Assembly (NCBI GenBank): GCA_903916595.1
Contig: CAIWXI010000049.1
Location: 23,396-87,395 of the forward strand
DNA: 64,000 bases
Reading direction: 5' to 3'
From: an uncultured Bacteroidales bacterium
Lineage (GTDB): Bacteria; Bacteroidota; Bacteroidia; Bacteroidales; FEN-979
Part shown: one piece after another, positions 390 through 36,713 of the stretch
Position numbering within the stretch: the first letter of the stretch is position 1
Layout: the number at the start of each line of letters is the position of its first letter
Program-made: the position numbers and the translations under genes
Notes under the pieces: model-generated
What the model was told of the DNA's origin: nothing
Databases searched by the model: none
The model's input: the letters and a program-made list of their open reading frames with translations, nothing else

Positions 390-1403
390 ATGTCCACCTT
401 CAGCATCCTCGTCCCTACCTATAATCATGAGCAGTTTATCGACGACTGTATCCGCTCGGTAGTTGCCCAGACCTTTACTGATTGGGAAATGATCGTGCTC
501 GACGACGGGAGTCCCGACGGAACTGGCGCTCTGGTGAGGGAATGGGCTAAATCGGAGCTGAGGATCACCTACATCCGCCAGTCCAACAAAGGGATCTTCA
601 GGCTGTTCGAAACCAATAATTACGGACTGGGGATATCCAAAGGAAAATATATTTGTATTCTTGAGGGGGATGATTACTGGGAAAAGGATAAGCTGCAAAA
701 ACAGTTCAATGCCCTGGAAAGTCACCCTGAAGTGGTTCTCTGCTGGGGGAAAGTCAATGCCTTTTCATCCGAGACCAAAAAAATTCACACTATACTTCCC
801 ATGGTGGGCAGCACCGTCCCATTCTCATGGAACAATAATCCCTCAGGTAATATTTTAAACAATCTGTGTCTCGATAATTTCATTCCTTCGGTAACTATAA
901 CGATGCGAAGAACGGCTCTTGAAGAGATCGGCGGGTTCCAGGAACTGCAGGGATTTCCCGCAACAGATCTGCCCACGGTTCTAAAACTGGCAACCATGGG
1001 GCCGTTTTATTTCTGTAATGAGATCCTTGCCAATTACAGGATACAGAGCAACCAGATCACAAAAGTATATTCTATCAAATTACTGGAACAAAGAATACAG
1101 TTCATCCACGGGTTTATCGCTTCCCTGCCTCCCGTGATAAAACAACAGCTTATGCTGACGACCCCGCAACTGGACCGGCATTTCAGAAAGACCCGGCTGA
1201 TAACCCGTGTTGTTTCGGGCCGTCACAAGCTCATCCGCCAGGAATATAAAGAAGCAAGAAAAGATTTTCTTGCCGCCCTCGAAACCCGATCAGCTTTACT
1301 CCCCGCCTGGAGGCTTGCGGCATTCGCCGGACTGGTTTTCGGCCTCTTCCACCGCAACATGGAAGGATTGCTGCAGGTCCTGGGTAAGACGGGATACCGG
1401 TAA
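390..1403 (+). CDS. glycosyltransferase family 2 (GT-A fold)
   Basis: N-terminus FSILVPTYNHEQFIDDCIRSVVAQTFTDWEMIVLDDGSPDGT plus LEGDDYW (DXD-type) is the GT2 signature. Confidence 0.85.
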   Translation: MSTFSILVPTYNHEQFIDDCIRSVVAQTFTDWEMIVLDDGSPDGTGALVREWAKSELRITYIRQSNKGIFRLFETNNYGLGISKGKYICILEGDDYWEKDKLQKQFNALESHPEVVLCWGKVNAFSSETKKIHTILPMVGSTVPFSWNNNPSGNILNNLCLDNFIPSVTITMRRTALEEIGGFQELQGFPATDLPTVLKLATMGPFYFCNEILANYRIQSNQITKVYSIKLLEQRIQFIHGFIASLPPVIKQQLMLTTPQLDRHFRKTRLITRVVSGRHKLIRQEYKEARKDFLAALETRSALLPAWRLAAFAGLVFGLFHRNMEGLLQVLGKTGYR

Positions 1404-1414
1404 GGCGCTTCGCA

Positions 1415-1470
1415 CCGATAACAGATATCGGATAACGGATGTCGGATAACAGATGTCGGATAACAGATGA
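1415..1470. repeat. eight phased heptamers CCGATAA CAGATAT CGGATAA CGGATGT CGGATAA CAGATGT CGGATAA CAGATGA
   Basis: Read directly. Begins 12 nt after the GT2 stop. Confidence 0.9.
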
Positions 1471-1507
1471 CTGAATTTTGTATTTTTGACTTTTTAAAAT
1501 CGATTGC

Positions 1508-1846
1508 ATGAAAATTATCGCTCAGCCTGTCATCTTATCTGAACTTTGGGAAAACCGGGAGGTTGATTTTACTGAAATGATGAAAATTGTTGTTGATGTG
1601 AAGCAGGAGATTCTCGCTATCGATGCTGAAATGCATGCTGATCTCGAACAGGATTTGCTGGCCGAAGGGAGTCAGCAACAGGATCTCTGGGGCGCAAACA
1701 TCTATCCTTTAAAAGAAGCGGATGATCGGTTAGAATACACATCTTTCATTAATATAAGGCCTTCACTGGGAAACAGTTCCATGGAGGTCATTGATCCCGG
1801 CATCAGAAATAAAATTGCTGCAATCGCAGATCATTTGCTGATATGA
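1508..1846 (+). CDS. hypothetical small acidic protein (possibly DUF5674-like; recollection only)
   Basis: 112-aa ORF with ATG start, bracketed by heptamer arrays and with no competing ORF. No catalytic motif recognised. Confidence 0.5.
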   Translation: MKIIAQPVILSELWENREVDFTEMMKIVVDVKQEILAIDAEMHADLEQDLLAEGSQQQDLWGANIYPLKEADDRLEYTSFINIRPSLGNSSMEVIDPGIRNKIAAIADHLLI

Positions 1847-1854
1847 TTCGAGAG

Positions 1855-1933
1855 TCGTACATCGTAATTCGTACATCGTACATCGTACTTTATACATCGT
1901 AATTCGTAAATCGTAATTCGTAAATCGTAAATC
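1855..1933. repeat. eleven phased heptamers TCGTA[CA][AT] (one degenerate TTATACA)
   Basis: Read directly. Fills the 1847-1936 spacer. Confidence 0.9.
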
Positions 1934-1936
1934 AAA

Positions 1937-2299
1937 GTGTATCCCCTCGTCTATCATAAAACCCTTACCACCGAAAAGTGGAACTCATATCCCCGCTTTC
2001 AGCAAATCCTGATGATTGCAAATGAGATGAACCGTGCGCAGAATGCACTGCTGAAAAACGACACTCAAAACGCCATACATGCCTGGGAACGCGCATTTGA
2101 ACTGACAGATCTTACAATCAACGACTCCAGTAATGTCAGATATTTAAAGGAGCTCCTTCGCTTCAGGGAATTATCGGGGGAATTGTTCCTGAACCCCGAT
2201 GCCGATTTCAGCAAGGCACTTATGAATGCACTGATAAGCCTGGACCCGAAAGCCTGGAATATGTTGAGATATCAGATATCTGCCATCAGTAATCAGTAG
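1937..2299 (+). CDS. hypothetical protein
   Basis: 120-aa ORF with a GTG start 4 nt after the heptamer array. The last ~10 codons (RYQISAISNQ) are encoded by AGATATC/TGCCATC repeat DNA. It overlaps the mutY stop convergently by 7 nt. Confidence 0.45.
   Translation: MYPLVYHKTLTTEKWNSYPRFQQILMIANEMNRAQNALLKNDTQNAIHAWERAFELTDLTINDSSNVRYLKELLRFRELSGELFLNPDADFSKALMNALISLDPKAWNMLRYQISAISNQ
2267..2294. repeat. four phased heptamers AGATATC AGATATC TGCCATC AGTAATC inside the 3' end of ORF 1937..2299
   Basis: Read directly. Same units and orientation as 23458-23499. Confidence 0.85.
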
Positions 2300-3420
2300 T
2301 CCTCCAGATACTTTTCGATGATCCTGTGGACCGGCAAATCATTGAACTTGCTCCGAAGGATATATGTACCGAATTTTTCGGAGGGCTTTTCGATTTCGAG
2401 GGTGTAAAACCTGGCGGTGATCTTTAGATGGCTCAGAAGATGACTGACTTGCGTAGATTGTCCCAGTACCTTTACCTTGCTCGCCCCGAAAAACTGTCGC
2501 CATTCGGGGGTGTTCATCAGCCTTTGCAGGTTTACTGTTTTTGAAGTTTCAATCAGCGGAAATTCGTACAAGCCCTTCCAGATATCATTTCCTGTACGTT
2601 TCCTGAAAAATAATCCCTTTTTCCCTCTTACGCTAATCACCAGGTAATTGAAATACCTGGGCTTCAGAGGTTGCTGCTGTTTTTTTAGCGGAAGTTTTTC
2701 GACCATCCCGAATTTCAGCGCGTAACAGCTGTCGTTGAAAATGCAGTTATTGCACTGCGGATTACGTGGCACGCAATATGTTGCGCCGAATTCGATCATT
2801 GCCTGGTTGAACGTGCCGGATGTCGGATGCGGGATATGGGATACGGGATGCAAGATATCCTGCATCCTGCATCCTGCATCTTGTAACCTGCATCCTGCAT
2901 CCTGAATCTGTTCCATCAAACCATTCAGCACCTCCATGATCTCCTTCTTCACAGCAGCCTCATCAACCGGCCCGGTGATCCCGAAATGGCGGGTTATGAA
3001 ACGAATCACATTTCCATCCATTACAGGGTGGGGAAGACCGAAGCAGACTGAAGCAATCGCTGCAGCAGTGTAATCTCCAATCCCCTTTAATGCCCGGAGT
3101 CTGTCATAGGTTTCGGGAAATATTCCGTTATACTTTTCAACGATGTCATTTGCCGTGGAATGCAGATTGCGTGCCCTCGAATAATAACCCAGCCCCTGCC
3201 ATTGTTTCAACACCTCATCCTCAGTGGCCACGGCGAGGTCCTGAACCGTGGGAAAGACATCAGCGAACTTGTTATAATAAGGAACTCCCTGTTCAATGCG
3301 GGTTTGCTGCATAATGATCTCCGAAAGCCAGATCAGATAGGGATCGGTCGTCCGCCGAAAAGGAAAATCCCGGGCATTTGCCTTGTACCATTTAAAAAGC
3401 TTGTTCAGGAAATCATTCAT
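2293..3420 (-). CDS. mutY: A/G-specific adenine DNA glycosylase MutY, carrying a ~31-codon in-frame repeat insertion
   Basis: HhH-GPD motifs (LIWLSEIIMQQTRIEQG, LGYYSRARNLH, LKGIGDYTAAAIASVCFG), Fe-S loop CVPRNPQCNNCIFNDSC and a C-terminal NUDIX-like domain. Start moved to ATG 3420 (MNDFLNKLFKWY) because the 29 upstream codons of the track ORF are GTGNNNC repeat DNA and a -7 box lies at 3428-3435. Confidence 0.85.
   Translation of the reverse strand: MNDFLNKLFKWYKANARDFPFRRTTDPYLIWLSEIIMQQTRIEQGVPYYNKFADVFPTVQDLAVATEDEVLKQWQGLGYYSRARNLHSTANDIVEKYNGIFPETYDRLRALKGIGDYTAAAIASVCFGLPHPVMDGNVIRFITRHFGITGPVDEAAVKKEIMEVLNGLMEQIQDAGCRLQDAGCRMQDILHPVSHIPHPTSGTFNQAMIEFGATYCVPRNPQCNNCIFNDSCYALKFGMVEKLPLKKQQQPLKPRYFNYLVISVRGKKGLFFRKRTGNDIWKGLYEFPLIETSKTVNLQRLMNTPEWRQFFGASKVKVLGQSTQVSHLLSHLKITARFYTLEIEKPSEKFGTYILRSKFNDLPVHRIIEKYLEDY
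2816..2908. repeat. 13 phased heptamers forming an imperfect palindrome (GGATG-type arm / CCTGCAT-type arm) centred on GATATC 2854-2859, in frame inside mutY
   Basis: CCGGATG TCGGATG CGGGATA TGGGATA CGGGATG CAAGATA | TCCTGCA TCCTGCA TCCTGCA TCTTGTA ACCTGCA TCCTGCA TCCTGAA. Confidence 0.9.
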
Positions 3421-3452: not shown

Positions 3453-3508
3453 GTGAGCCATGAGCCGTGACACGTGACACGTGACACGTGGTACGTGCTT
3501 CGTACATC
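3453..3508. repeat. eight phased heptamers GTGNNNC (GTGAGCC ATGAGCC GTGACAC x3 GTGGTAC GTGCTTC GTACATC)
   Basis: Read directly. Lies upstream of the mutY start/-7 box. Confidence 0.9.
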
Positions 3509-5717: not shown

Positions 5718-5725
5718 TTTAATGG

Positions 5726-5790
5726 ACGATGTACAATGTACGATGTACGATTAAAGAGTCCTTCGTACATCGTACATCGTAAATCGTACA
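5726..5790. repeat. inverted heptamer arrays (ACGATGT ACAATGT ACGATGT ACGA / TCGTACA TCGTACA TCGTAAA TCGTACA) giving a ~25-bp hairpin with a 12-nt loop
   Basis: Read directly. Occupies the rng-trpS spacer and ends 4 nt before the trpS ATG. Confidence 0.9.
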
Positions 5791-5794
5791 TTCC

Positions 5795-6843: not shown

Positions 6844-8430
6844 ATGAAACACCTGAAACTTCGGCTTCTGCTGCTTTCCCTCGCTTCCGGATTGCTCTTT
6901 TCCCTTGCCTGGCCTGAGAAAGGAGTTCCGGTCTTGTTGTTTATTGCTTTTGTCCCTTTACTGCGGATGGAGGAGCTTATCAGCTCAAACCGTGAGAAAT
7001 TTAACCGGTTCTCGGTGTTTTTCTGGTCGTATCCCGGTTTCTTCCTGTGGAATTTGCTTACTACCTGGTGGATAGTGAATTCAACCGGACAGGGCGCTGC
7101 CATGGCCGTTTTGCTCAACGCCATGTTCATGAGTATTGTGTTCGCCTTTTTCAGCGGAACAAAGCGCAGGCTGAACAGCAGACCCGCCGGATACCTGGCC
7201 CTGGTCTGTTACTGGGTGATGTTTGAATACCTTCACCTGAACTGGGACCTGAACTGGCCCTGGCTTAACCTCGGAAACGGCTTTGCTTCCTATTCTCACT
7301 GGGTACAGTGGTACGAATATACCGGGGCGTTCGGGGGAACGGTGTGGGTGCTGGTAGCGAATGTGATGATTTTTTCCATTTTAAATGGTGAAATGGTGAA
7401 TCGCCATTTCACCATTTTACTTACTATCCTTCTCCCCATCGCCTTCTCCTACCTCCTCTACTACACTTATAAAGAGAAGGCATGGCCCGTCAACGCTGTG
7501 ATTGTTCAGCCCAACATCGATCCGTATTCCGAGCAGTATGTTCTGCCGCCACAGCAGGTTTTAGGAAGGATCATGAGTATCGCGGGAACCGCTCTTGATT
7601 CCTCGACCAATATCCTGGTGACTCCCGAATCGGCGCTTCAGCAGGAAATGTGGGAGAATGAGTTGGAAACTTTTGAGAGTATTAAACTGGCGAGACAGAT
7701 TATAACAAAGTATCCTGGGCTGAATATTATTCTCGGGGGGACTACTTTTTACGCTTTCAGACCGGACGAGAAAATTCCGCATACCGCCCGGAAGTTCACT
7801 CAGGAGGACCGCTGGTACAACAGGTATAACGCGGCGATCATGGTGAACAGCCATCCGCAGATACAGACCTATCATAAATCAAAACTCACGCCGGGAGTTG
7901 AGATTCTGCCCTCATATAACGGATTCAAATGGCTTGAAAAATATGCTATCGACCTCGGCGGAATTGTCGGAAGCCTCGGCACCGACTCGGTTCGTAAGGT
8001 TCTTCAGGTTGTGAGCATGCCCCCGGTGGCGGCTTGTATCTGCTATGAATCGATTTTCGGGGAATTTTTTGCCGAATTCGTCAGGAATGGCGCCCAGGTG
8101 ATGTGTATTATCACCAACGACGGATGGTGGGGTAATACCGCCGGGCACAGACAGCATTTTTCTTTTGCCCATCTGCGTGCTATCGAGACCCGCCGAAGTA
8201 TTCTCCGATCGGCCAATACCGGGATTTCGGCCGTGATCGACCAAAGGGGCGATGCGCATCAGCAGACGAAATACTGGGTCCCGGCGGTGATCAAAACCAC
8301 TGTTAATGCAAATGATAAAATAACTTTCTACACCGCACATGGCGATTACATCGCGTTCTGGCTTTCGTGGCTCGGCGGATTGCTTTACCTTGGGTCTCTG
8401 GGAGTATGGGTCATGAGGAAACGTATCTGA
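6844..8430 (+). CDS. lnt: apolipoprotein N-acyltransferase
   Basis: Polytopic N-terminal half plus a CN-hydrolase domain with catalytic-Cys context VAACICYESIFGEF. Contains a short in-frame octamer hairpin insert (7383-7417). Confidence 0.85.
   Translation: MKHLKLRLLLLSLASGLLFSLAWPEKGVPVLLFIAFVPLLRMEELISSNREKFNRFSVFFWSYPGFFLWNLLTTWWIVNSTGQGAAMAVLLNAMFMSIVFAFFSGTKRRLNSRPAGYLALVCYWVMFEYLHLNWDLNWPWLNLGNGFASYSHWVQWYEYTGAFGGTVWVLVANVMIFSILNGEMVNRHFTILLTILLPIAFSYLLYYTYKEKAWPVNAVIVQPNIDPYSEQYVLPPQQVLGRIMSIAGTALDSSTNILVTPESALQQEMWENELETFESIKLARQIITKYPGLNIILGGTTFYAFRPDEKIPHTARKFTQEDRWYNRYNAAIMVNSHPQIQTYHKSKLTPGVEILPSYNGFKWLEKYAIDLGGIVGSLGTDSVRKVLQVVSMPPVAACICYESIFGEFFAEFVRNGAQVMCIITNDGWWGNTAGHRQHFSFAHLRAIETRRSILRSANTGISAVIDQRGDAHQQTKYWVPAVIKTTVNANDKITFYTAHGDYIAFWLSWLGGLLYLGSLGVWVMRKRI
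7383..7417. repeat. octamer hairpin AAATGGTGAAATGGTGAA-tcgc-CATTTCACCATTT in frame inside lnt
   Basis: Read directly. Encodes LNGEMVNRHFTIL. Confidence 0.9.
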
Positions 8431-9458: not shown

Positions 9459-9782
9459 CTTCTGCTCTTACTTTGCAGCTCTCAGCTACGGAACTATTAC
9501 GACCCACCATCGGCTTGCTTCCTAAGCCAGGTCAGCCGTTCGGTACTATGTTTGTCTCTTTTATAATGGGATAACCACTTAGTGAAGTCTAATTGAAGCG
9601 AAACATCTCACACAAGCTGCCTTGGGTGTTAAGGAGCGAATTACCCTTTAGAGTAAAATCTGGTAAATCATTCATGAGTGACGCAAACACCCCAGCAGCG
9701 GTGTGAGGATGTGAGCTAATGTAGGTCGCAGTAGTTTCGTAGCTGAGGGGTGCAGGGTCAGCGATGAAGCAGTAATGCAGAG
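9459..9782 (+). ncRNA. orphan highly structured element: candidate ncRNA, or alternatively a MITE-like element with ~24-bp terminal inverted repeats
   Basis: No ORF, lying between two convergent stops. 9481-9504 pairs with 9724-9747 (24 positions: 21 Watson-Crick, 2 G-U, 1 A-C mismatch on the + strand). A nested helix pairs 9604-9630 with 9686-9711, and there is a small hairpin GGCTT-GCTTCCT-AAGCC at ~9512-9528. Strand was assigned only from the G-U count. Confidence 0.4.
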
Positions 9783-11150: not shown

Positions 11151-11241
11151 AAAAGTATGTGTTTAAACAGGGTGTTACGACATCCGCCGAAAGAAAATAT
11201 AAACAAGATTTTGTTGGGAAATATTTTATCCCTATTTCCAT

Positions 11242-11249
11242 TATCTTTG
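11242..11249 (+). promoter_or_regulatory. -7 box TAtcTTTG for polA
   Basis: 15 nt upstream of the in-frame TTG 11265. Confidence 0.5.
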
Positions 11250-11264
11250 CATAAAACCACTAAC

Positions 11265-14159
11265 TTGCCAGAAAACAAACTCTTCCTCCTCGATGCAATG
11301 GCCCTGATCTACCGGGCCTACTACGCGTTCAAGAACAACCCCAGGGTGAGTTCCAAAGGAGTAAACACCTCTGCTGCTTTCGGATTTGCCAATACTCTTT
11401 TTGATGTACTGCGGAAGGAAAAGCCCACGCATATAGGTGTTGCCTTTGATACCATCGCACCTACCGTGCGCCACGAAGGGTACGAATTGTACAAAGCTCA
11501 CCGACAGGAAACCCCGGAAGATATAATTTTATCAATTCCTCTTATTCACGAACTTCTTCACGCTTTTAGAATTCCCGTTCTTTTTGTTGATGGCTTTGAG
11601 GCGGATGACGTAATTGGTACCCTCGCCAGGCAGGCTGAAACTGCGGGATGGACTACTTATATGATGACTTCGGATAAGGACTTCGGACAACTTGTAAGTG
11701 CTACCACCCTGATTTACAAGCCCGGAAAGTTCGGCGGAGATGTTGAGATCATGGGCGTGAAGGAAGTCTGCGAGAAGTTCGGGATCAGCAATCCGCTTCA
11801 GGTCATCGATATGCTTGGTTTATGGGGAGATGCGTCGGATAATATACCTGGTATTCCCGGCGTGGGCGAAGTCACGGCCCGCAAACTCCTGGCCGAATTC
11901 GGCTCGGTGGAAAATCTTGTTGAACACCCAGAGAAGGTTGCCAACGAAAAACTGCGTCAGAAAGTTATTGAATTCAAAGATCAGGCCCTGATGTCGAAAA
12001 GCCTGGCAACTATCATTCTTGATGTTCCCATCGCCTTCGAACCGGATAAACTGGTCGTGGAAGCACCCGATGAGCTGCGGCTGAAAAGGTTGTTTGATGA
12101 ACTAGAGTTTCGGGCGCTCGGGGAACGTGTTTTCAAATGGGCGGCAGGGATGCAGGATCCAGGATCCAGGATCCAGGATGCAGGATCCAAAATCTTACAT
12201 CCCGCATCTGACATCCCGGACCTTTTCTCCGACCTTGAATCTGCTTCCCCAATCCCTAATCCCCAGTACCCAGTCACCCAGTCACCCAGTCATCCTGCAT
12301 CCAGCATCCTGGATCACGACTCACGGATCACGGATCACGACTCACTTGCCACGATCTCTGACACTCCCCACACCTATGTTCTTGTCAACACACAGGAAGC
12401 CCGCCTTGACCTCATCCGCAGTCTTAAGAAATCAAAAACATTCTGCTTTGACACGGAAACTACGGGAATTGACCCTAACAACTCGGAACTGGTAGGGATG
12501 TCGTTTTCGGTGAAGCCGCATGAGGCATATTATATTCCTCTCCCCGAGAACTACCATGAGACTGAACTTATCGTCCAGGAGTTCAAGGATGTACTTGAAG
12601 ATCCCAAGATCGAAAAAGTGGGACAGAACATGAAGTTCGACATTGCGATCCTGAAATGGTACGGCATCGATGTTAAGGTTCCCATGTTCGACACTATGCT
12701 GGCGCATTACCTTTTGCAGCCCGACATGAGGCATAATATGGATTTCCTCTCGGAGATCTATCTGAAATACAAGCCGGTACCTATTGAATCCCTCATAGGA
12801 AAAAAGGGCGCGGGCCAGCTTAGCATGCGCACGGTTGATACTGATACAATTAAAGAATATGCTGCGGAGGATGCTGATGTGACTCTTCAGCTGAAAAATG
12901 TGTTCGAGCCTTTGCTGGCTGATAGTGATACCCGTAAACTGTTCGACGAGATAGAGATTCCGCTCATTCCTGTTCTTGCTTCTATGGAAAAGGAAGGTGT
13001 GCGGATAGATTCTTCGGTTTTGAACGAATATTCGGTGGAGCTTGAAAAAGAAGTACTTATAATTAAGGAAGAGATTTTCAGGGAAGCCGGAACAACGTTT
13101 AACATCTCTTCTCCAAAACAGCTGGGCGAAATCCTTTACGAACGGCTGAAGATCGTTGAAAAGCCCAGGCAGACCAAGACCAAGCAGAATTCAACGAGCG
13201 AAGATGTGCTGACTAAGCTTGAAGCAAAACATCCGATCATCAGCAAAATATTGGAATACCGGTCTTTGGCAAAATTGAAGTCGACGTATGTGGATGTGCT
13301 TCCATTGTTGGTAAGCCCCCGTGATAATCGCATTCATACATCGTATAACCAGGCGGTTGCGGCTACAGGCAGACTGAGCTCCAATAATCCAAACCTTCAG
13401 AACATCCCTATCCGCACAGAGAAAGGGCGTGAAATCCGCAAAGCGTTTGTGCCCAGGAATGATAATTATATCTTGCTGAGCGCCGACTATTCCCAGATCG
13501 AACTTCGCATCATCGCATCGATGAGCGGGGATAAAAACATGATGGAGGCCTTTAAAAATGGCGAGGACATCCACCAGGCGACGGCTGCCAAGATTTACGG
13601 CATGAAGCTTTCTGAGGTGAGCAAGGACATGCGCAGGAATGCCAAAATGGTGAACTTCGGGATTATATACGGAATTTCAGCATTTGGTTTGTCAGAACGT
13701 TCAGGCATGTCGCGAAAAGAAGCTGCGGATGTGATAAAACAGTACTTTGAACAATACCCCGGGATCAGGGAGTATATGGATAATACCATCGCTTTTGCCC
13801 GGGCTAACGGTTTTGTGGAAACCCTTATGAAACGCAGGCGTTACCTTAGGGATATCCATTCGGGCAATGCCAACGTTCGCGGATTTGCCGAACGAAACGC
13901 CATCAATGCACCGGTTCAGGGTACAGCGGCCGATATGATAAAGATTGCCATGATCAGGATTTTTCATAAGTTTGAAGAGCAAAAACTAAGGTCGCGGATG
14001 ATATTGCAGGTTCACGACGAACTTGTGTTTGATGTGCATAATTCTGAAGTTGAAGAAGTTAAAAATATAATTGAAATTGGAATGAAGAACGCGTTGCTGC
14101 TGGATGTACCTGTTGAGATTGACATGAATACAGGAGCGAACTGGTTGCTGGCGCATTAG
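11265..14159 (+). CDS. polA: DNA polymerase I; the inter-domain linker is built from heptamer/octamer repeat DNA
   Basis: 5' nuclease (KLFLLDAMALIYRAYYAF), 3'-5' exonuclease (FCFDTETTG), polymerase motifs A (LLSADYSQIELRI), B (RRNAKMVNFGIIYG) and C (QVHDELVF). Start proposed at the in-frame TTG 11265, 15 nt after a TAtcTTTG box. The track ATG at 11157 would leave only 6 nt for the divergent phoH-like promoter. Confidence 0.85.
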   Translation: MPENKLFLLDAMALIYRAYYAFKNNPRVSSKGVNTSAAFGFANTLFDVLRKEKPTHIGVAFDTIAPTVRHEGYELYKAHRQETPEDIILSIPLIHELLHAFRIPVLFVDGFEADDVIGTLARQAETAGWTTYMMTSDKDFGQLVSATTLIYKPGKFGGDVEIMGVKEVCEKFGISNPLQVIDMLGLWGDASDNIPGIPGVGEVTARKLLAEFGSVENLVEHPEKVANEKLRQKVIEFKDQALMSKSLATIILDVPIAFEPDKLVVEAPDELRLKRLFDELEFRALGERVFKWAAGMQDPGSRIQDAGSKILHPASDIPDLFSDLESASPIPNPQYPVTQSPSHPASSILDHDSRITDHDSLATISDTPHTYVLVNTQEARLDLIRSLKKSKTFCFDTETTGIDPNNSELVGMSFSVKPHEAYYIPLPENYHETELIVQEFKDVLEDPKIEKVGQNMKFDIAILKWYGIDVKVPMFDTMLAHYLLQPDMRHNMDFLSEIYLKYKPVPIESLIGKKGAGQLSMRTVDTDTIKEYAAEDADVTLQLKNVFEPLLADSDTRKLFDEIEIPLIPVLASMEKEGVRIDSSVLNEYSVELEKEVLIIKEEIFREAGTTFNISSPKQLGEILYERLKIVEKPRQTKTKQNSTSEDVLTKLEAKHPIISKILEYRSLAKLKSTYVDVLPLLVSPRDNRIHTSYNQAVAATGRLSSNNPNLQNIPIRTEKGREIRKAFVPRNDNYILLSADYSQIELRIIASMSGDKNMMEAFKNGEDIHQATAAKIYGMKLSEVSKDMRRNAKMVNFGIIYGISAFGLSERSGMSRKEAADVIKQYFEQYPGIREYMDNTIAFARANGFVETLMKRRRYLRDIHSGNANVRGFAERNAINAPVQGTAADMIKIAMIRIFHKFEEQKLRSRMILQVHDELVFDVHNSEVEEVKNIIEIGMKNALLLDVPVEIDMNTGANWLLAH
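12145..12218. repeat. about 10 phased heptamers: CAGGGAT GCAGGAT CCAGGAT x3 GCAGGAT, then polarity flip CTTACAT CCCGCAT CTGACAT; in frame in polA
   Basis: Read directly. Confidence 0.9.
12262..12345. repeat. mixed array: CCCAGTA (CCCAGTCA)x3 TCCTGCA TCCAGCA TCCTGGA TCACGAC TCACGGA TCACGGA TCACGAC; in frame in polA
   Basis: Read directly. Confidence 0.9.
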
Positions 14160-14288
14160 AAATGGTGAAATGGTGAAATGGTGAGAATTAATTGTAGAAA
14201 ATAAATGTAGGAATTTAATCTTCTTTTTATTTCACCATTTCACCATTTCACCATTTCACCATTTCACCATTTCACCATTTCACCATTT
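14160..14288. repeat. (AAATGGTG)x3 - 44-nt AT-rich spacer - (ATTTCACC)x7.5: unequal inverted octamer arrays
   Basis: Read directly. The left arm starts 1 nt after the polA stop and the right arm ends 12 nt before the ROK ATG. Confidence 0.95.
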
Positions 14289-17006: not shown

Positions 17007-19121
17007 ATGAAAAAACTTATTCTGCTTGCGCTGATATCTCTCCTGAACCTTGCCCTGTTTGCCGGAACCGTCACCAAAACATATCACTTCGGCAAAGTCA
17101 TTATTAAGAGCAACGGGAACTACCAGACACTTTCTTTCGAAAATACACTGTTGTCGGGCAATCCCGGTGAACCTATGATGCCCTGGGCCGCTGTATCGCT
17201 TATGCTGCCCCCGGGTGAATCTGCAACAGGTATTCAGATGCAAACATCAGGATTCGTGGAAATACAGGGATCTTTTCTGATACAGCCTCAACAGGATATC
17301 AGTCCGATTTCAAAAGGCAATAATGGGAAATTTCTGAAAAATGAAGCTGTTTACAGCTCCTCATCAACATATCCCCTTGTGAATACCGGGAATCTTAACA
17401 CTTCCTGGCTTAACGGATATGCCTTTGCCCTTTGCACTTTTACTCCAATGGTATATTACCCTTCGCTTCAGAAAGCCGGATATTATTCAGAAATAACCAT
17501 TACTATTACTACCGAAAAATCGGCTGCCTCGGCCGAAGCGCTGAAAAACCTTTCGCCATCCCTGAAAGTATTGAACAGGGTGCAGCAGTTTGCACAAAAC
17601 CCTGATCTCATCAACCGTTATCCTCAGAAAAAAAGCGCCGCTACCGGGTATCAGGTCCTTATCGTCACAAAACAGGCTTTCTCGTCGGGGTTTGCTCCTC
17701 TCACTGCCCTGTATGATTCTCTGGGGATCACCTGGCAGATAGCTACCGTTGAAAATATCTCCGCCGCAATGAGTGGCGCCGACACCCAGGAAAAAATCAG
17801 GAATTTCATTCAGCAGGAATACCAGCAGAACGGCATTGAATATGCCATGCTTGGTGGTGATGTGGAAATTGTTCCACACCGCAATTTTTACTGCTCTGTA
17901 CTTTCCGGTGGCAGTTATTATACAGCTTTTGATATCCCTTCCGACCTTTACTATTCGGGCATGGACGGCAATTACGATGCGAACAATAACGGGATTTATG
18001 CTGAAGTAGATGATGTTGCTGATCTGCTCCCCGATGTTTCTGTTGGAAGGCTTCCTTTCAGCACAGCTCAGGAACAAACCAACATCATTCATAAAACGAT
18101 CTGGTACAGGGCTCATCAGAAGGCCAACGAACAGGCCCGGCCACTTCTGGCAGCTGAATTTATGGATCAGGGAACGATGACTTTCGGGCAGGATTATCTG
18201 GAACTGATGGTGAACGATCGTACCGACAATGGCTATTTCACTCACGGCATTCCTTCCGCCTCAAACTCTATCGACAGGTTGTACGATACTCTGACCAGCC
18301 CTGTAGGCCCCACTCTTTACGAATGGACTACTTCTGAACTGCTGGCGAGGATAAACCATGGCCCTTCGTTTATTCATCATGCCGGCCATGCTAATGAAGT
18401 TTATGTGATGAAGCTTTATATCAGCGATATCACCAATGCAAATTTCTTTGCCCTGAACGGGGTCACTCATAATTATACCTTGATGTATACTCACGGATGT
18501 GACTGTGGGGCTTTCGACGCCAACGACTGTATCGCCGAAAGGATGGTGCTGATCCAGAATTTCCTTGCCGGCGGTGTTTTCAATTCCAGATATGGATGGT
18601 TTGACCAGGGGACTACCGAAGGTCCTTCGGCCCATCTGAACCGTGAATTCGTAAGCGCTTTGTATAACGACACTCTGGCTAACCAGATCCATGAACTGGG
18701 TTCAGCTCATCTGATGTCGAAAGTAAAAACAGCTCCATGGGTTACTGTTCCTAACGAATTTGAACCGGGAGCCCAACGCTGGTGTCATTATGATTGTAAT
18801 GTACTTGGCGACCCTGTGCTTTGGGTGTTCACCGAGAATATCCCGGTAGGTATACAAGATAAATCGCAGGAGGTCTCTCTTACAGTGTATCCGAATCCCT
18901 GCAGCGGCAAAGTCACCCTGAAATCCACTTCAATCAGGGCATCAAAAGTAAATCTCTCTTTGATTAATACCTTCGGACAGATTGTAGGAACCTGGGAAAA
19001 TATGAATCTGTCTGACCCTCAGTCACTTACGCTTAGTCTGCCTCAGCTTCCTTCAGGCGTATACTCCCTTGAAGCTTATGGTCCTGATTTTAAAACAAAC
19101 ATTAAACTGATCATCAGATAA
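17007..19121 (+). CDS. C25 (gingipain-like) cysteine peptidase with a T9SS CTD
   Basis: Signal peptide and N-terminal C25 propeptide-like region. Catalytic-type contexts HAGHANE (His) and YTHGCDCGAFD (Cys). CTD (VYPNPCSGKVTL...GVYSLEAYGPDFKTNIKLIIR). Confidence 0.8.
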   Translation: MKKLILLALISLLNLALFAGTVTKTYHFGKVIIKSNGNYQTLSFENTLLSGNPGEPMMPWAAVSLMLPPGESATGIQMQTSGFVEIQGSFLIQPQQDISPISKGNNGKFLKNEAVYSSSSTYPLVNTGNLNTSWLNGYAFALCTFTPMVYYPSLQKAGYYSEITITITTEKSAASAEALKNLSPSLKVLNRVQQFAQNPDLINRYPQKKSAATGYQVLIVTKQAFSSGFAPLTALYDSLGITWQIATVENISAAMSGADTQEKIRNFIQQEYQQNGIEYAMLGGDVEIVPHRNFYCSVLSGGSYYTAFDIPSDLYYSGMDGNYDANNNGIYAEVDDVADLLPDVSVGRLPFSTAQEQTNIIHKTIWYRAHQKANEQARPLLAAEFMDQGTMTFGQDYLELMVNDRTDNGYFTHGIPSASNSIDRLYDTLTSPVGPTLYEWTTSELLARINHGPSFIHHAGHANEVYVMKLYISDITNANFFALNGVTHNYTLMYTHGCDCGAFDANDCIAERMVLIQNFLAGGVFNSRYGWFDQGTTEGPSAHLNREFVSALYNDTLANQIHELGSAHLMSKVKTAPWVTVPNEFEPGAQRWCHYDCNVLGDPVLWVFTENIPVGIQDKSQEVSLTVYPNPCSGKVTLKSTSIRASKVNLSLINTFGQIVGTWENMNLSDPQSLTLSLPQLPSGVYSLEAYGPDFKTNIKLIIR

Positions 19122-19131
19122 ATCGCAAAAC

Positions 19132-22125
19132 ATGAAGAAACATTTATTTATTCTTGCCTCCCTGATTCTTACAGCATTTTCGCTGAGTGCAGAAAATTTT
19201 ACATACAGCAACAGCTGGGGTAAACAGGGTTTTAACCTTATCCAGTCAAAATCGGATGTGATACAGCTCGTGTATTCCATTCAGAATTTCTCTGTCGACC
19301 CTGTGGTCATCAACGGACAATCCTTGAAAAAAGTGAACCTTCCGGGAAACTTTCTTTTCAATGATGCAGGCAAGCCTGACCTTCCCGGAACCGGACATTA
19401 TCTTGCAATTCCCCAGGGCTCTGCTCCCCGTTTAAGGATTGTTGACTTTGAAATGGAAACCATTCATGGAGTCGATCTTGCATGGGCGCCCGAACTGCCC
19501 ATGGATACCCAGAAAGACATGGTTTACAACAAAGACCAGCAGGTCTACAGCGCCAACGCTTTTTATCCTGAAAGCCCGGTACAGATCTCAGGAGTGGACC
19601 AGATTCGCGGTACCGACGTGGTTATCCTTGGAATCACCCCCTTCCAGTACAACCCCGTTACAAAGGAACTGAAGGTGTACAGGAACATAAAGATCGATCT
19701 CACTTTCGAGGGAGGTAGCGGCAAATTTGGTAACGATGCTTTCCGCAGTCAGTACTGGGATCCCATCATGGCCGACAATATTCTGAATTTCTCAAGCCTT
19801 CCTTCAGTGAACTATCCCGAACGTATGGCCAACCTCAGGAACACCAATAAACCCGCAACCGATGAATGTGAATATATCATCATCAGCCCTAACGGACCTG
19901 ATTTTCTGAGGTGGGCCGACAGTCTGAAGAACTGGCGTAACCAGCAGGGTATCCTCACCAAAGTTTTCTCTCTGGCTCAGGTTGGCGGAAATACCGAAGC
20001 TCTCATCAAAAGCTTTGTAAGCAATGCATACAACAACTGGACGATTAAACCTGTTGCCTGTTTGTTGCTTGGTGATTATGGAACGGATGCCTCCAAAAAC
20101 ATTACCTCACATCTTTATTCACATCCCGCGGGCTATCCCAATTTCGCTTCCGATAATTATTATTCTGACTTTACCGGCGACGAGATGCCTGACGTTGTTT
20201 TTGCCCGAATTGCCGCAAATGATTCGGTGCAGCTTCGTAAAATGGTTGGACGTCAACTGAATTTCGAGAGAAACCGTCCGGTCGATACAAGCTATTACAA
20301 ACATCCTATTTCTGCTCTCGGATGGCAGGATGACCGCTGGTTCCAGCTGTGTTCTGAACTCGTTGGAGGGTTCTGGAAAAATAAACTCGGGAAACATGTA
20401 ATCAGGATCAACGCCCTGGGTTCCCCGGCAAATAACTACAACAACGGTCCCTGGTCAACAGCTTCCAATACCAATACGGTAATGAATTATTTCGGTCCTT
20501 CTGGTTTGAATTATATCCCAACCATCCCTGGCACTATCGGAGGATTTACAGGCGGGACTGCCACCATGATCAATGCCGCCATCAACAGCGGGTCATTCCT
20601 GTTACTTCACAGAGATCACGGATATTATTCAGGATGGGGAGAGCCAGCTTACGCCTCGGGTAACGTTAGTCAGTTAACCAATACCCTTCTTCCTTTTGTG
20701 TTCTCCATCAATTGCGAAACCGGCGCCTACCATAATCCTTCAGGTTGCCCTGCCGAATGTTTTCAGGAAGTCTTTCAGCGCCTTTATAAAAACGGTCACG
20801 ATGCCGGCGCTCTTGGCCTGGTATGCCCGAGCGAAACTTCTTATTCTTTTGTAAACGATGTTTTCGTATGGGGAGCCTTCGATAATATGTGGCCTGAGTT
20901 TATGCCCTCATATGGTTCAAATCCCGCTTCCAGAGGCATCCTTCCTGCCTTTGCGAATGCTGCCGGAAAATATTTCCTGAAACAGTCCAGCTGGCCGTAC
21001 AACACCAGCGACAAACAGGTTACATACCGTTTATTCCATATGCATGGCGATGCTTTTTTGCAGCTTGCCGATACTGTACCCATCAATCTGACAGTAAACC
21101 ATGCCGATACCATTAGCATGGGTACCACAACTGTCAATATCACGGCTAACGACAGCGCTTTCATCGCCCTTTCGGTGAATAATGAGATCATTGCAACAGC
21201 TTTCGGAAGCGCTTCAGGCCCGGTATCAATTACCATTCCGGATCTCCCTGATGGAACACAGATCCTGGTCGTGGCCACAAAACAGGATTTTAACCGCCAC
21301 ACATCACATATTCTGGTACTGCAGCTGCCTCTTGCTGCTGAATTTACGGCCAGCGCTACCGAAGTTTGCGTCGGTTCTCCGCTTAACTTTACAGATCTTT
21401 CTACCGGTGCTCCTACCGCCTGGGAATGGACTTTACAGGGCGGCACACCGGCAACATCCACCGATCAGAACCCGGCAGGGGTAGTGTATGCCGCGGCCGG
21501 CTCTTACGATGTAAGCCTTACCGTCACAAAATCAGGCCAAAGCCCCAGCACTACAACAAAGACCGCCTATATCAATGTATATGAGCAGCCTGTTGCAGCC
21601 TTTACAAGCAGCGGATCCTATGCCGGTTCACCTACTTCATTCACCGATCAGACGGTCCACCCGGGATCCACTATTATTGGTTGGTTATGGAATTTCGGTG
21701 ATCCTACATCCGGGTCCAGCAATACTTCTACCCAGCAGAACCCAACCCATACGTATTATGCACACGACACTTATGCCGTGACACTGCAAATTCAGACCAC
21801 GGGCGGTTGTGTCGATTCAACAACGACTGATGTGGTTATAAATTTCCCGGTCAGTATCAACGATATCAATGCCCTTGGTTTTGATATCTTCCCCAACCCC
21901 TCAAACGGTAAATTCACCATCACTTTCAATTCCCGTGCGGCTGTTGCGGTAACAATCAACGTGTTCAATTCACTGGGCACAACGCTGTATTCCGAAAAAG
22001 ACCTTCAGGTCAATGGCCGATTCAGCAAGCTTGTTGACTTCACAGGGAAACCAGCAGGAATCTATTATATCAAGATCGAAAGCGAAGCCGGATCTGTAGT
22101 ACGGAAACTGGTGCTCGGAAAGTAA
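19132..22125 (+). CDS. C25-family cysteine peptidase with two PKD domains and a T9SS CTD
   Basis: LLLHRDHGYYSGWGEP (His) and VFSINCETGAY (Cys) contexts. Two PKD repeats (WEWTLQGGTPATS...YDVSLTV; WLWNFGDP...YAVTLQI). CTD (IFPNPSNGKFTITF...GIYYIKIESEAGSVVRKLVLGK). Begins 10 nt after the preceding gene. Confidence 0.8.
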   Translation: MKKHLFILASLILTAFSLSAENFTYSNSWGKQGFNLIQSKSDVIQLVYSIQNFSVDPVVINGQSLKKVNLPGNFLFNDAGKPDLPGTGHYLAIPQGSAPRLRIVDFEMETIHGVDLAWAPELPMDTQKDMVYNKDQQVYSANAFYPESPVQISGVDQIRGTDVVILGITPFQYNPVTKELKVYRNIKIDLTFEGGSGKFGNDAFRSQYWDPIMADNILNFSSLPSVNYPERMANLRNTNKPATDECEYIIISPNGPDFLRWADSLKNWRNQQGILTKVFSLAQVGGNTEALIKSFVSNAYNNWTIKPVACLLLGDYGTDASKNITSHLYSHPAGYPNFASDNYYSDFTGDEMPDVVFARIAANDSVQLRKMVGRQLNFERNRPVDTSYYKHPISALGWQDDRWFQLCSELVGGFWKNKLGKHVIRINALGSPANNYNNGPWSTASNTNTVMNYFGPSGLNYIPTIPGTIGGFTGGTATMINAAINSGSFLLLHRDHGYYSGWGEPAYASGNVSQLTNTLLPFVFSINCETGAYHNPSGCPAECFQEVFQRLYKNGHDAGALGLVCPSETSYSFVNDVFVWGAFDNMWPEFMPSYGSNPASRGILPAFANAAGKYFLKQSSWPYNTSDKQVTYRLFHMHGDAFLQLADTVPINLTVNHADTISMGTTTVNITANDSAFIALSVNNEIIATAFGSASGPVSITIPDLPDGTQILVVATKQDFNRHTSHILVLQLPLAAEFTASATEVCVGSPLNFTDLSTGAPTAWEWTLQGGTPATSTDQNPAGVVYAAAGSYDVSLTVTKSGQSPSTTTKTAYINVYEQPVAAFTSSGSYAGSPTSFTDQTVHPGSTIIGWLWNFGDPTSGSSNTSTQQNPTHTYYAHDTYAVTLQIQTTGGCVDSTTTDVVINFPVSINDINALGFDIFPNPSNGKFTITFNSRAAVAVTINVFNSLGTTLYSEKDLQVNGRFSKLVDFTGKPAGIYYIKIESEAGSVVRKLVLGK

Positions 22126-22177: not shown

Positions 22178-23463
22178 ATAATAAGCTTATCTATTCGGTT
22201 TCCGTCGAGATCGACTATCTCGAACTCATAATCCATAAAAACGAATTTCTCACCCGGCTTGGGGATGCGTTTGAGAATGCTTATGGCAAGGCCGGCCAGG
22301 GTGTTGAATTTTATCCTTGACTTGTCGAAGCCCTGCAGGTTGAATTCATAAGCAAATTCGTAGAACGACATCTGTCCGTCGGCAAGCCAGCTGCCGTCGT
22401 CCCTGATATTAATCTGAGGCTCATCGGGATCAGGTTCGTTGAAATCACCTACAATTGCCTCAAGTATATCATTCAGCGTTACCATCCCTACAATCGAACC
22501 GTATTCATCGACCACCAGTCCGTAATGGATCTTGTTTTCCTTGAAAAGCTCCAGCGACTCATAGGCCGTAAGCGTTTCCAGAACCAGCTGTGCAGGCCGG
22601 GTATATTCCTTCAGATTCAAATCCGCATCGGGCTTGGAATGTAAAAAAAGATCCTTGATATACACCACCCCCAGAACATTGTCGAGATCATCGTGGCATA
22701 CAGGGTAAACCGAATGAACCTCTTCCCTCATTTTTTTCCATATCTCAGAAAGGTGTTCGTTCACATCGAGCCAGATGATATCGGAATAATGCGTCATAAG
22801 CGAAGCAATTTTCTGATCGCCAAGATGAAACACCCGTTCCACGATATCCTGCTCTATCTCCTGAACTTCCCCGTCGTCGGTGCCTTCCTGAACCATCGCA
22901 CGAATCTCTTCTTCTGTAACTTTTGAATCGGCGGATGGCTTTATCCCAAGAATTCCGATAATCAGGTCGCTTAACCTGGTAAGCAGCCAGGTAACCGGTT
23001 GAATTACATACGAAATAGCGACAATAGGCCGTATCATTACTTTGGAAATGCCTTCGCTCTTGATAAGCCCGATACGTTTTGGCACAAGTTCCCCTATAAG
23101 CATAGATACCAGGGTTACAACCAATACGACCAGAGAAAGGGCAAGAGATTTTGCAACAGTTGCAGAAACACCCGAGGAGATCAGCAGTGACGCAACGCCC
23201 TCGGATATCCCGGCCCCGCTGAAAACCCCGGTAAGGATTCCGATGAGGGTAATGGCAATTTGAAAAGTAGAGAGGATGCGGGCCGGTTTATTGAGCTGGT
23301 CAAGAGCTACACGCGCTCCTTTATGGCCCGATTGTGCATCCAGCTCCAGCCTGGTCTTGCGTGACGAAACCATTGCGATCTCGGTCATCACGAAGACGCC
23401 GTTGATGAGGAAAAGAGCGAAGAGAATGAATATTTCTGCTATCATACCTTGAATGTTTGCCAT
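22165..23463 (-). CDS. CNNM/CorC-HlyC family membrane protein (DUF21-CBS pair-CorC_HlyC)
   Basis: Four N-terminal TM helices, a tandem CBS region and a C-terminal transporter-associated domain, 432 aa. GldE-type naming is not justified without gldD context. Confidence 0.8.
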   Translation of the reverse strand: MANIQGMIAEIFILFALFLINGVFVMTEIAMVSSRKTRLELDAQSGHKGARVALDQLNKPARILSTFQIAITLIGILTGVFSGAGISEGVASLLISSGVSATVAKSLALSLVVLVVTLVSMLIGELVPKRIGLIKSEGISKVMIRPIVAISYVIQPVTWLLTRLSDLIIGILGIKPSADSKVTEEEIRAMVQEGTDDGEVQEIEQDIVERVFHLGDQKIASLMTHYSDIIWLDVNEHLSEIWKKMREEVHSVYPVCHDDLDNVLGVVYIKDLFLHSKPDADLNLKEYTRPAQLVLETLTAYESLELFKENKIHYGLVVDEYGSIVGMVTLNDILEAIVGDFNEPDPDEPQINIRDDGSWLADGQMSFYEFAYEFNLQGFDKSRIKFNTLAGLAISILKRIPKPGEKFVFMDYEFEIVDLDGNRIDKLIIKKM

Positions 23464-23499
23464 CTGCCATCTGATATCAGATATCAGATATCAGATACA
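23458..23499. repeat. six phased heptamers TGCCATC TGCCATC TGATATC AGATATC AGATATC AGATACA
   Basis: Read directly. Includes the corC start codon (23461-23463) and fills its leader. Confidence 0.9.
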
Positions 23500-23504
23500 T
23501 TTTC

Positions 23505-34555: not shown

Positions 34556-34603
34556 AAATGGTGAAATGGTGAAATGGTGAAATGGTGAAATGGTGAAATG
34601 GTG
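34556..34603 (-). repeat. (ATTTCACC-phase) octamer x6 on the sense strand of the TPR gene, 22 nt upstream of its ATG
   Basis: The plus strand reads (AAATGGTG)x6. Confidence 0.95.
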
Positions 34604-34650
34604 TTCGGCGAAGCCGTAATGAACACAAATAAAATAGACAATTCGTGAAT

Positions 34651-34670
34651 AAATGGTGAAATGGTGAAAT
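34651..34670 (-). repeat. second octamer block x2.5, same orientation
   Basis: The plus strand reads AAATGGTGAAATGGTGAAAT. Lies 12 nt from the dut stop. Confidence 0.9.
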
Positions 34671-36650: not shown

Positions 36651-36657
36651 TTTTTTT

Positions 36658-36713
36658 CAGATAACGGATAATGGATAATGGATAACGGATGGCAGATGGC
36701 ATCCATCATCTGA
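36658..36713. repeat. eight phased heptamers CAGATAA CGGATAA TGGATAA TGGATAA CGGATGG CAGATGG | CATCCAT CATCTGA
   Basis: Read directly. Lies in the flippase-operon leader between the -7 box (36732-36739, minus) and ATG 36650. Confidence 0.9.

Follow-up and report, generated by a model that had tools for sequence, protein, structure and literature searches.

In-frame palindromic heptamer array within the mutY gene of an uncultured freshwater Bacteroidales bacterium

Introduction

In an uncultured freshwater Bacteroidales bacterium, the gene for the DNA repair enzyme MutY carries a palindromic array of heptanucleotide units, read on the minus strand, within its coding sequence. This locus raises the question of how a repeat with a 7-nt unit, which is not a multiple of three, enters the reading frame of a core enzyme and persists there. 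The gene lies in a stretch of 64,000 nt, which was analysed as a whole and is referred to as the window, and a first-pass annotation of the letters alone had proposed that the array is inserted in frame in MutY. We herein describe the anatomy and position of the array, the intact fold of the host protein, length polymorphism within the species, turnover across the clade, and parallel cases in polA and in a gene for a flippase-like protein. The array is probably one member of a genome-wide class of heptanucleotide-repeat palindromes that lies in a MutY loop tolerant of insertions; it would be translated and change by slippage, with selection keeping only lengths that are stop-free and divisible by three.

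Results

Anatomy of the array

The array consisted of 13 phased heptamers at positions 2818-2908: six of the GGATNNN type, followed by seven of the complementary CTGCATC type (Table 1). This layout, including the GATATC centre at which the two arms meet, had been given by the first-pass annotation and was exact to the base. Tandem Repeats Finder (TRF) detected a period of 7 at 2814-2851 and 2857-2908 (5.4 and 7.4 copies, respectively), and inverted arms of 39 nt with 74% complementarity were reported by a repeat finder. The folding energy of the array in the mRNA sense was -48.8 kcal/mol versus -27.6 +/- 3.5 kcal/mol for 200 dinucleotide shuffles (z = -6.0; 0/200 as good), and folding as DNA was weak (-19.1 kcal/mol; z = -2.7). 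The real window contained 21 period-7 TRF rows, with scores of up to 81, whereas 30 Markov-1 simulated windows of 64 kb contained 0.9 rows on average, with a maximum of 4 and a best score of 36. Because of this difference in row number and the z value of the fold, the array is not attributable to chance. It also shows the property by which long simple sequence repeats (SSRs) are defined: short units in a head-to-tail arrangement beyond compositional expectation.

GATGCAG, the unit of the perfect triple, contains no stop codon in any phase on either strand. Approximately 50% of heptamers overall are stop-free on both strands, and a filter against stop codons is, therefore, real but weak. The array is flanked in mutY by the anchor sequences ATGGAACAGATTCAG and ACGTTCAACCAGGC, and an example of a predicted tryptic peptide for the region is MQDILHPVSHIPHPTSGTFNQAMIEFGATYCVPR.

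Host protein and site of the insertion

The Pfam E-values of the window MutY were 2e-18 for HhH-GPD and 9e-12 for NUDIX_4 (the C-terminal domain for the recognition of 8-oxoguanine (8-oxoG)), with HHH also being present. The best relatives in PDB by phmmer were the MutY proteins of Geobacillus stearothermophilus (GsMutY; E = 4e-63) and E. coli (E = 2e-44). D135 (MDGNV) was invariant among 106 homologues and E34 (LSEIIMQQTR) was nearly so (90% or more); we take these two residues to be the catalytic pair of MutY. No substitution was seen in D135 or in the ligand motif of the [4Fe-4S] cluster, C216-x6-C223-x2-C226-x5-C232, in either of two alignments, with 34 and 106 sequences. An AlphaFold2 model constructed from the 106-sequence alignment had a mean predicted local distance difference test (pLDDT) score of 93.7 and a predicted template modelling (pTM) score of 0.87, and was aligned by Foldseek with crystal complexes of GsMutY and DNA with template modelling (TM) scores of 0.83 (query) and 0.89 (target). 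The block means of pLDDT over residues 171-200 were 72, 57, and 81, while those of all remaining blocks were at least 90. The preceding helix in this model was prolonged through the first repeat units (helix 155-180) and was followed by a loop. Judging from the alignments and the model, the catalytic residues, Cys4 motif, and 8-oxoG-recognition domain are left intact despite the insert.

Residue 169 of the query corresponded to residue 170 of GsMutY in the phmmer alignment and residue 198 to residue 172, by which approximately 27 query residues (within 170-197) were unmatched. The spacing from DGN to FG (of FNQAMIEFG) was exactly 52 residues in 77/106 Bacteroidota MutY homologues and 79 in the window. 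The translated open reading frame (ORF) and the phmmer gap supported the proposed in-frame insertion between the ...VLNGLMEQ helix and the FNQAMIEFGA helix, and the statement that other MutY proteins run almost directly from the former to FNQA was in agreement with both GsMutY (170 to 172) and the 52-residue spacing. On the other hand, two details of the first-pass annotation need to be refined. The array encodes residues 171-201, consistent with the length of 31 codons given there, but, measured against MutY without an insert, it adds a net 27 residues (81 nt; approximately 174-200), since the outermost array codons substitute for ancestral loop codons. Similarly, the insert precedes the cluster region, as described, but is located before the helix leading to the cluster rather than just before the cluster loop: 16 residues separate its end from C216, the first Cys ligand. 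The site corresponds to a surface loop between the last helix of the helix-hairpin-helix (HhH)/six-helix-barrel module and the helix leading into the [4Fe-4S] module. Removal in the manner of an intein or intron is unlikely: no domain match supported it, and it is hard to square with strict conservation of the frame.

Clade-wide turnover of the insert

The DGN-to-FG spacing was 59-151 residues in 28/28 close relatives, corresponding to inserts of 7-99 residues with unrelated sequences. The clade consists of metagenome-assembled genomes (MAGs) of uncultured freshwater Bacteroidota/Bacteroidales from Lake Pavin, ELA lakes, and Swedish lakes. An alignment with homologues had been suggested in the first-pass annotation as a means of finding whether the segment is a conserved part of MutY in relatives without arrays; it is not conserved, the inserts of the 28 members differ, and their genomes bear such arrays elsewhere. 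No residue within the insert was conserved across the clade alignment. A single reading frame ran through the insert in 8/8 close genome loci.

Several relatives retained traces of common ancestry in spite of this turnover. The mutY array of L001 consisted of ~17 copies of GATGTCA, followed by GATATC and CGACATCCGG, and the window array had the same terminal ...CGCATCCGACATCCGG. The ...CGACATCCGG end is common to the window and L001, and both arrays therefore derive from one ancestral array. Different GATG-type arrays with complementary arms were found in mutY of L081, L083, L084, and L086, which also shared the ...CGACATCCGG end. The inserts of other relatives contained octamer arrays, TTCGCTAC (L006 and L051) and ATCACGCC (L004). 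An extra element of ~140 nt with terminal inverted repeats (TIR) was present in L002, L003, L006, and L051 and, in the inverted orientation, in L005; these elements and the arrays of L001, L081, L083, L084, and L086 were all in frame. Nested GC-rich hairpins were also observed within mutY arrays, at the centre in L081 (GGAGCTTTGCTCC) and twice in L086 (AGCGCGAAGCGCT), with the frame being kept. Arrays seem to draw in further palindromic insertions. A distant MutY (P0071; 45% identity) carried an independent array-type insert in the identical loop, and this loop is, therefore, permissive. Based on these comparisons, the MutY site is an old, clade-wide, and length-polymorphic hypervariable loop, not the result of a one-off event.

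Length variation within the species and a frameshift allele

Contigs with exactly the 375-amino-acid protein of the window numbered 33, and dozens of others carried near-identical alleles (NCBI, ENA, and JGI). A cluster at 90% identity contained MutY proteins of 375, 382, 389, and 396 amino acids, the sole difference between which was the presence of 1, 2, 3, and 4 DAGCRLQ units, respectively, before the final DAGCRMQ. In the DNA of L077 and L080, the 21-mer GATGCAG GATGCAG GTTACAA was repeated. Multiple copy numbers of DAGCRLQ were found on each of two N-terminal sequence backgrounds, and the change was, therefore, recurrent. The 3' arm (2818-2853) showed no variation among alleles of the same species and was nearly identical in a second species.

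One contig (L079; MEGAHIT, 18.3 kb) differed from the window mutY by 1 mismatch and by one GATGCAG fewer (two versus three units), and this 7-nt deletion caused a frameshift that divided mutY into pieces of 205 and 168 amino acids. At least 110 contigs were in frame versus 1 frameshifted, numbers that refer to assembled consensus sequences and, thus, to majority alleles only. When predicted out-of-frame products were looked up as exact sequences in a collection of 15 billion proteins, 9/10 were absent and the sole match was that of L079. A pattern scan of JGI metagenomes over the terminal tract yielded 2 copies, both in frame, which are too few for allele frequencies.

The apparently split mutY members, with pieces of 190 and 168 amino acids, were mostly artefacts of N gaps (L074-L076 and L080) or contig ends (L077 and L078) inside the array, and only L079 among them was a true 7-nt deletion. 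Assemblies had breaks or N runs exactly at the mutY array (L074-L078 and L080), and scaffolds partly duplicated it; these breaks suggest either length heterogeneity within samples or a failure of repeat resolution.

Comparison with a second species

The array of the window (2818-2908) was 94% identical to that of L072 (1803-1895), which belongs to a different species, while identity over mutY as a whole was 78% for DNA and 81% for the protein. Identity at synonymous third positions reached 0.96 in the array (27 codons); it was 0.63 over the entire gene and 0.71 and 0.62 in the two flanks of 30 codons. Only 1 difference was found in 42 nt of the non-homogeneous 3' arm. A broad recombination tract was not seen in the flanks of the array between these two sequences. 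The z values of the hairpin fold in relatives were -4.8 (L001), -4.4 (L072), -1.7 (L084), -1.6 (L086), and -0.4 (L004).

Related arrays elsewhere in the window

Arrays were also located in frame in two other genes of the window. The linker of polA between the 5'-nuclease and Klenow regions contained ~200 nt of heptamer arrays encoding ...AGMQDPGSRIQDAGSKILHPASDIP...SPSHPASSILDHDSRITDHDS..., and the Klenow alignment began only at residue 406. This linker varied as well: P0135 from the same species had two extra SRIQDAG units, and relatives with identities as low as 68% had other array-type linkers. The 3'-arm strings of the mutY and polA arrays were alike (partial similarity), and both arrays were read in the same phase. 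The third case was close to the C-terminus of a 499-amino-acid membrane protein, presumably a polysaccharide flippase or flippase-like protein. A further array (36657-36701) was observed just 5' of the start of this gene.

Heptamer or octamer arrays occupied most of the short spacers between genes over the window's first 38 kb, and many of them were stem-loops in which (X)n precedes its complement, (X')n. Two spacer arrays that were checked (5721-5792 and 14159-14288) took up the whole interval between the stop codon of one gene and the start codon of the next. The sequence of the unit differed from array to array across loci. A second repeat class, of perfect octamer arrays of AAATGGTG / CACCATTT with up to 7.5 copies, was observed at 355-381, 7383-7400, 14159-14288, and 34556-34670; after polA and in the spacer between dut and a TPR gene, two octamer arrays in opposite orientations formed long stem-loops. 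Neither the arrays nor the TIR element described below matched an Rfam family, the sole match in the window being one tRNA-Arg, and a scan for sigma-70 promoters and intrinsic terminators detected no enrichment.

The ends of mutY are also affected by arrays. A longer mutY ORF of 404 amino acids, up to 3507, was a read-through of the upstream array; such over-long calls arise because the array at 3454-3499 is stop-free on the mutY strand. Two proteins from NCBI MAGs (P0123 and P0124) have an N-terminal extension of 29 amino acids that is missing in other cluster members, and this may have the same cause. The array at 2267-2298 encodes the C-terminal residues of the convergent 120-amino-acid ORF and covers the stop codon of mutY, with the two genes overlapping by 7 nt. 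In strain L077/L078, the neighbouring gene encodes 114 amino acids, and a (GATAACA)5 array is located between it and mutY. Gene ends are, therefore, also remodelled by arrays.

A protein search with the insert peptide found dozens of "hypothetical proteins" of 30-95 amino acids (P0256-P0375), which were translated (GATGCAG)n with MQDAGCR repeats; those with a source name were mostly from Bacteroidota MAGs. This search missed the MutY alleles and is, therefore, unusable for counting in-frame hosts. Window ORFs of 64-92 amino acids at 1231-1509 (-) and 1763-1957 (-) were likewise mere translated arrays. A TIR element of ~290 nt (GCTCTCAGCTACGGAACTATTACGACCCACC... and its complement) was observed at 9470-9760 in the convergent spacer of the peptidase M28 and PhoH/PIN genes, and its termini belonged to the same family as those of the ~140-nt mutY element of L002, L003, L006, and L051 (inverted in L005). 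The region of 17007-22125 contained two adjacent genes for gingipain-like C25 peptidases with C-terminal sorting domains of the type IX secretion system (T9SS), beside other Por_Secre_tail proteins; this appears to be ordinary Bacteroidota content and is unrelated to the arrays.

Table 1. Coordinates of mutY, its heptamer array, and related features of the window
Feature	Position	Strand	Description
mutY coding sequence, 375 amino acids	2293-3420	-	Start ATG at 3420-3418; Pfam HhH-GPD, HHH, NUDIX_4
13-heptamer palindromic array	2818-2908	-	Encodes MutY residues 171-201, QIQDAGCRLQDAGCRMQDILHPVSHIPHPTS
First six heptamers	2818-2859		GGATGTC GGATGCG GGATATG GGATACG GGATGCA AGATATC
Last seven heptamers	2860-2908		CTGCATC x3, TTGTAAC, CTGCATC x2, CTGAATC
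GATATC dyad centre, meeting point of the arms	2854-2859		Same centre in relative L001 and in window arrays 2267-2298 and 23456-23500
Perfect (GATGCAG)x3, mRNA sense	2860-2880	-	Encodes DAGCRMQ; site of the 7-nt deletion of contig L079
21-nt higher-order unit GATGCAG GATGCAG GTTACAA	2881-2901	-	Encodes DAGCRLQ; single copy in the window
3' arm (mRNA sense) of heterogeneous NNNCATC units	2818-2853	-	TTGCATC CCGTATC CCATATC CCGCATC CGACATC; encodes ILHPVSHIPHPTS
Heptamers in the mutY 5' leader (CGTGACA and similar units)	3454-3499		Stop-free on the mutY strand
Heptamer array AGATATC / TGCCATC / AGTAATC	2267-2298		Convergent ends of mutY and the 120-amino-acid ORF (1937-2299)
(GATGTAC)n/(GTACATC)n	5721-5792		Spacer between RNase G and TrpRS
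Heptamer arrays in frame in the polA linker	12146-12346 (polA 11157-14159)	+	GGATCCA/GGATGCA, then complementary and other units
(AAATGGTG)n/(CACCATTT)n octamer arrays	14159-14288		After polA
(ATCCCGC)x3 in frame	35228-35263 (ORF 35151-36650)	-	Encodes NIPHPASRILL

Discussion

Origin and maintenance of the array

The presence of the array in MutY probably has the following explanation. In the ancestor of the freshwater Bacteroidales clade, one array would have come into the codons of the MutY surface loop, by insertion or by growth in place, and would have been transcribed and translated into an additional, poorly ordered excursion of ~27 residues. Its length would subsequently have changed through replication slippage, the mechanism that we infer, or through unequal exchange among repeat units, with the frame being kept only when three heptamers at a time (21 nt, 7 codons), or some other multiple of 3 nt, are gained or lost, and with survival limited to units that are stop-free in every phase. 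Since 7 has no common factor with 3, any three consecutive units pass through all three codon phases and only stop-free units would persist; since only multiples of 3 nt are viable, both the higher-order unit of 21 nt and the steps of 7 residues that separate strains would follow. The lack of conserved residues in the insert, together with the low model confidence, suggests that it is nearly neutral.

Translation of the array is presumed from strict conservation of the frame over alleles and species, for which there would be no reason if the segment were removed at the RNA level. Several observations weigh against the explanation as a whole. Conservation of the array above synonymous sites between the window and L072 hints at a constraint beyond that of a passenger in a neutral loop. 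Homogenisation of units does not explain this conservation because the units of the 3' arm differ among themselves; a constraint at the nucleic acid level, very short-patch conversion, and a low substitution rate in hairpin DNA are possible causes. Moreover, one 7-nt frameshift allele (L079) exists, which leaves room for a role in switching, and the Pfam scan of 30 window ORFs found no transposase, including the RAYT transposases associated with repetitive extragenic palindromic (REP) sequences.

Alternative explanations

It may also be, although we regard this as rather doubtful, that heptamer palindromes are not passive: either (X)n-(X')n arrays are built by a process peculiar to the lineage and, inside genes, provide new linker peptides as well as tunable or switchable elements (in mutY, slips of 7 nt would toggle a mutator state and steps of 21 nt would tune the enzyme), or the embedded hairpin is itself selected, as the unusually high conservation of nucleotides between the window and L072 suggests. 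A hairpin in DNA or mRNA, kept for ribosome pausing between modules, for mRNA stability or processing, or as a protein-binding or cruciform site, with the peptide as a by-product, would agree with the strong fold of the window, L072, and L001, with nucleotide conservation between the window and L072 well over that of flanking synonymous sites, and with the stem-loop layout that intergenic arrays share and whose stop-to-start placement recalls hairpins of the type of REPs and bacterial interspersed mosaic elements (BIMEs). We nevertheless consider it unlikely as the reason for retention: the arms are merely 74% complementary, the strength of the fold is lost in part of the clade (L084, L086, and L004), turnover among relatives is complete in both sequence and length, the fold as DNA is weak, and neither an Rfam family nor terminator-like enrichment was found. 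The frameshift allele bears on a mutator switch or contingency locus, in which slips of one or two heptamers in (GATGCAG)3 would frameshift mutY and produce reversible G:C to T:A mutators, while 21-nt steps might tune activity. The unit is intragenic and not a multiple of 3, the triple at 2860-2880 is perfect, the deletion of L079 is exactly in this tract in a gene otherwise 1 mismatch from that of the window, copy number is unstable within the species, and precedents have been described for H. pylori mutY (PMC8875331) and for Salmonella mutL (PMC2955026). However, the single frameshifted contig stands against at least 110 in frame, the nine other predicted products are absent, both copies of the JGI scan are in frame, and a lone MEGAHIT contig could represent repeat collapse, given that assemblers do break at the array. 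Furthermore, the perfect tract comprises just three units, and arrays are also present in polA, the flippase gene, and most intergenic spacers, and are, therefore, not targeted to a switchable gene. A switch is thus quite improbable as the function of the array.

The insert may also be regarded as a co-opted protein module, namely, a selected linker or interaction peptide that confers a new property on MutY in this clade. Every clade member retains some insert (7-99 extra residues), and helix 155-180 of the AlphaFold2 model runs into the first repeat units; however, zero insert residues are conserved clade-wide, model confidence in the insert is low, its composition is that of a translated repeat unit and the complement, its copy number differs within the species, and the same peptides recur in spurious intergenic ORFs as well as in the linker of polA, making selection for the peptide very improbable. 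The likelihood of an assembly or sequencing artefact or of a pseudogene is close to nil: although assembly breaks or N gaps are frequent at the array, the exact protein and its near-identical alleles occur on many contigs from NCBI, ENA, and JGI, the ORF is whole with all catalytic and cluster residues, and relatives from independent projects have inserts at the same site. The explanation by a slippage-evolving, translated array in a permissive loop is the one preferred here.

Comparison with known repeat systems

By analogy, the mutY array works most like the Rickettsia palindromic elements (RPEs), palindromic repeats whose in-frame insertion into housekeeping genes is tolerated by the fold of the host protein (Ogata et al. 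2000, 2002, as summarised in PMC10969869). The features shared with RPEs are hairpin-forming palindromic repeats in frame in unrelated housekeeping genes, an extra peptide that is seemingly compatible with the fold (in the array, presumed to be translated), and the occurrence of intergenic copies. RPEs are dispersed elements of ~100-150 bp with a conserved consensus and a conserved peptide, in an obligate intracellular alphaproteobacterium, whereas the array consists of locus-specific 7-nt units that change by slippage, in a free-living Bacteroidales host. The ~140-nt TIR element at the MutY site of relatives (L002, L003, L005, L006, and L051) is a closer analogue still. When RPEs are considered together with MITEs (transposable elements of miniature size with inverted repeats), the mutY array shares with them the position of a palindromic element in frame in a housekeeping ORF; a dispersed conserved consensus with TIR or a target-site duplication was not found for the arrays, and no target-site duplication was evident. 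The TIR element at 9470-9760 of the window, also found in mutY of relatives, fits the description of a dispersed consensus with TIR.

Long SSRs with units of 5-11 nt, notably heptanucleotides, have been reported in bacteria (Mrazek et al. 2007, as summarised in PMC4679880), and TAACTGA repeats are present in Beggiatoaceae, Cyanobacteria, and Bacteroidetes (PMC4679880). Like the arrays described herein, these are tandem heptanucleotide arrays that are abundant in some genomes, mainly intergenic and often near start and stop codons, presumably growing by polymerase slippage, and limited in placement by stop content. They differ in being described as direct repeats whose coding cases favour units divisible by three, while the present arrays are complement-paired palindromes of many units with one period and change in frame by steps of 21 nt. 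Short tandemly repeated repetitive (STRR) heptamers, such as CCCCAGT, TTGGTCA, and CAACAGT, are known from heterocystous cyanobacteria. The units of the present arrays are GATGCAG and others of the GATG type, and the host belongs to Bacteroidota.

Slippage in a homonucleotide tract of H. pylori mutY acts as a mutator switch, according to PMC8875331 (citing Huang et al. 2006), and the copy number of a 6-bp tandem repeat tunes or inactivates Salmonella mutL (PMC2955026). The mutY array resembles both in being a slippage-prone repeat in a repair gene, in which a change in copy number can inactivate the gene, as the deletion of L079 would. On the other hand, this array class is genome-wide and not repair-specific, its usual variation is in frame, and frequent or reversible switching was unsupported here. 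Each REP is a single palindrome of 20-40 nt with a conserved sequence; REPs are extragenic by definition and tied to RAYT (Y1) transposases. Intergenic arrays of the window resemble REPs and BIMEs as stem-loops between genes, occupying the whole spacer in the two checked cases, but their arms are made up of tandem arrays, copies of the class also lie within genes, and RAYT was not found among the 30 window ORFs by Pfam. Coding palindromes are also known from mitochondrial genes of Nematomorpha, in which the arms encode conserved protein regions (PMC6649704), and from PARCEL palindromic repeat coding elements, which encode 25-residue amphipathic domains of surface proteins (PMC2996958). The likeness to these two systems is solely that of inverted repeats with both arms translated, since the arms here encode a non-conserved loop of a cytoplasmic repair enzyme. 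A literature search of incomplete coverage found no account of such arrays from Bacteroidota within the reading frame of mutY or polA.

Significance

The locus provides a checkable case, outside Rickettsia, of repeat-derived palindromic DNA in frame within core enzymes (MutY and Pol I), and natural alleles show that the process acting on the array is still active. It also illustrates how a 7-nt repeat may persist in a reading frame, through a 21-nt higher-order unit and stop-free units, and indicates that such arrays can generate protein linkers de novo. For the MutY family, a permissive loop is recognised that was struck independently in a distant lineage. In practical terms, metagenome assemblies break at the arrays, and gene callers are misled by stop-free ones, resulting in N-terminal extensions and dozens of spurious "hypothetical proteins." Should the frameshift allele represent real switching, mutY would provide an environmental, free-living bacterium with a mutator controlled by a repeat. 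On our reading, the array is a live example of selfish or neutral repeat-derived DNA residing within core repair and replication enzymes.

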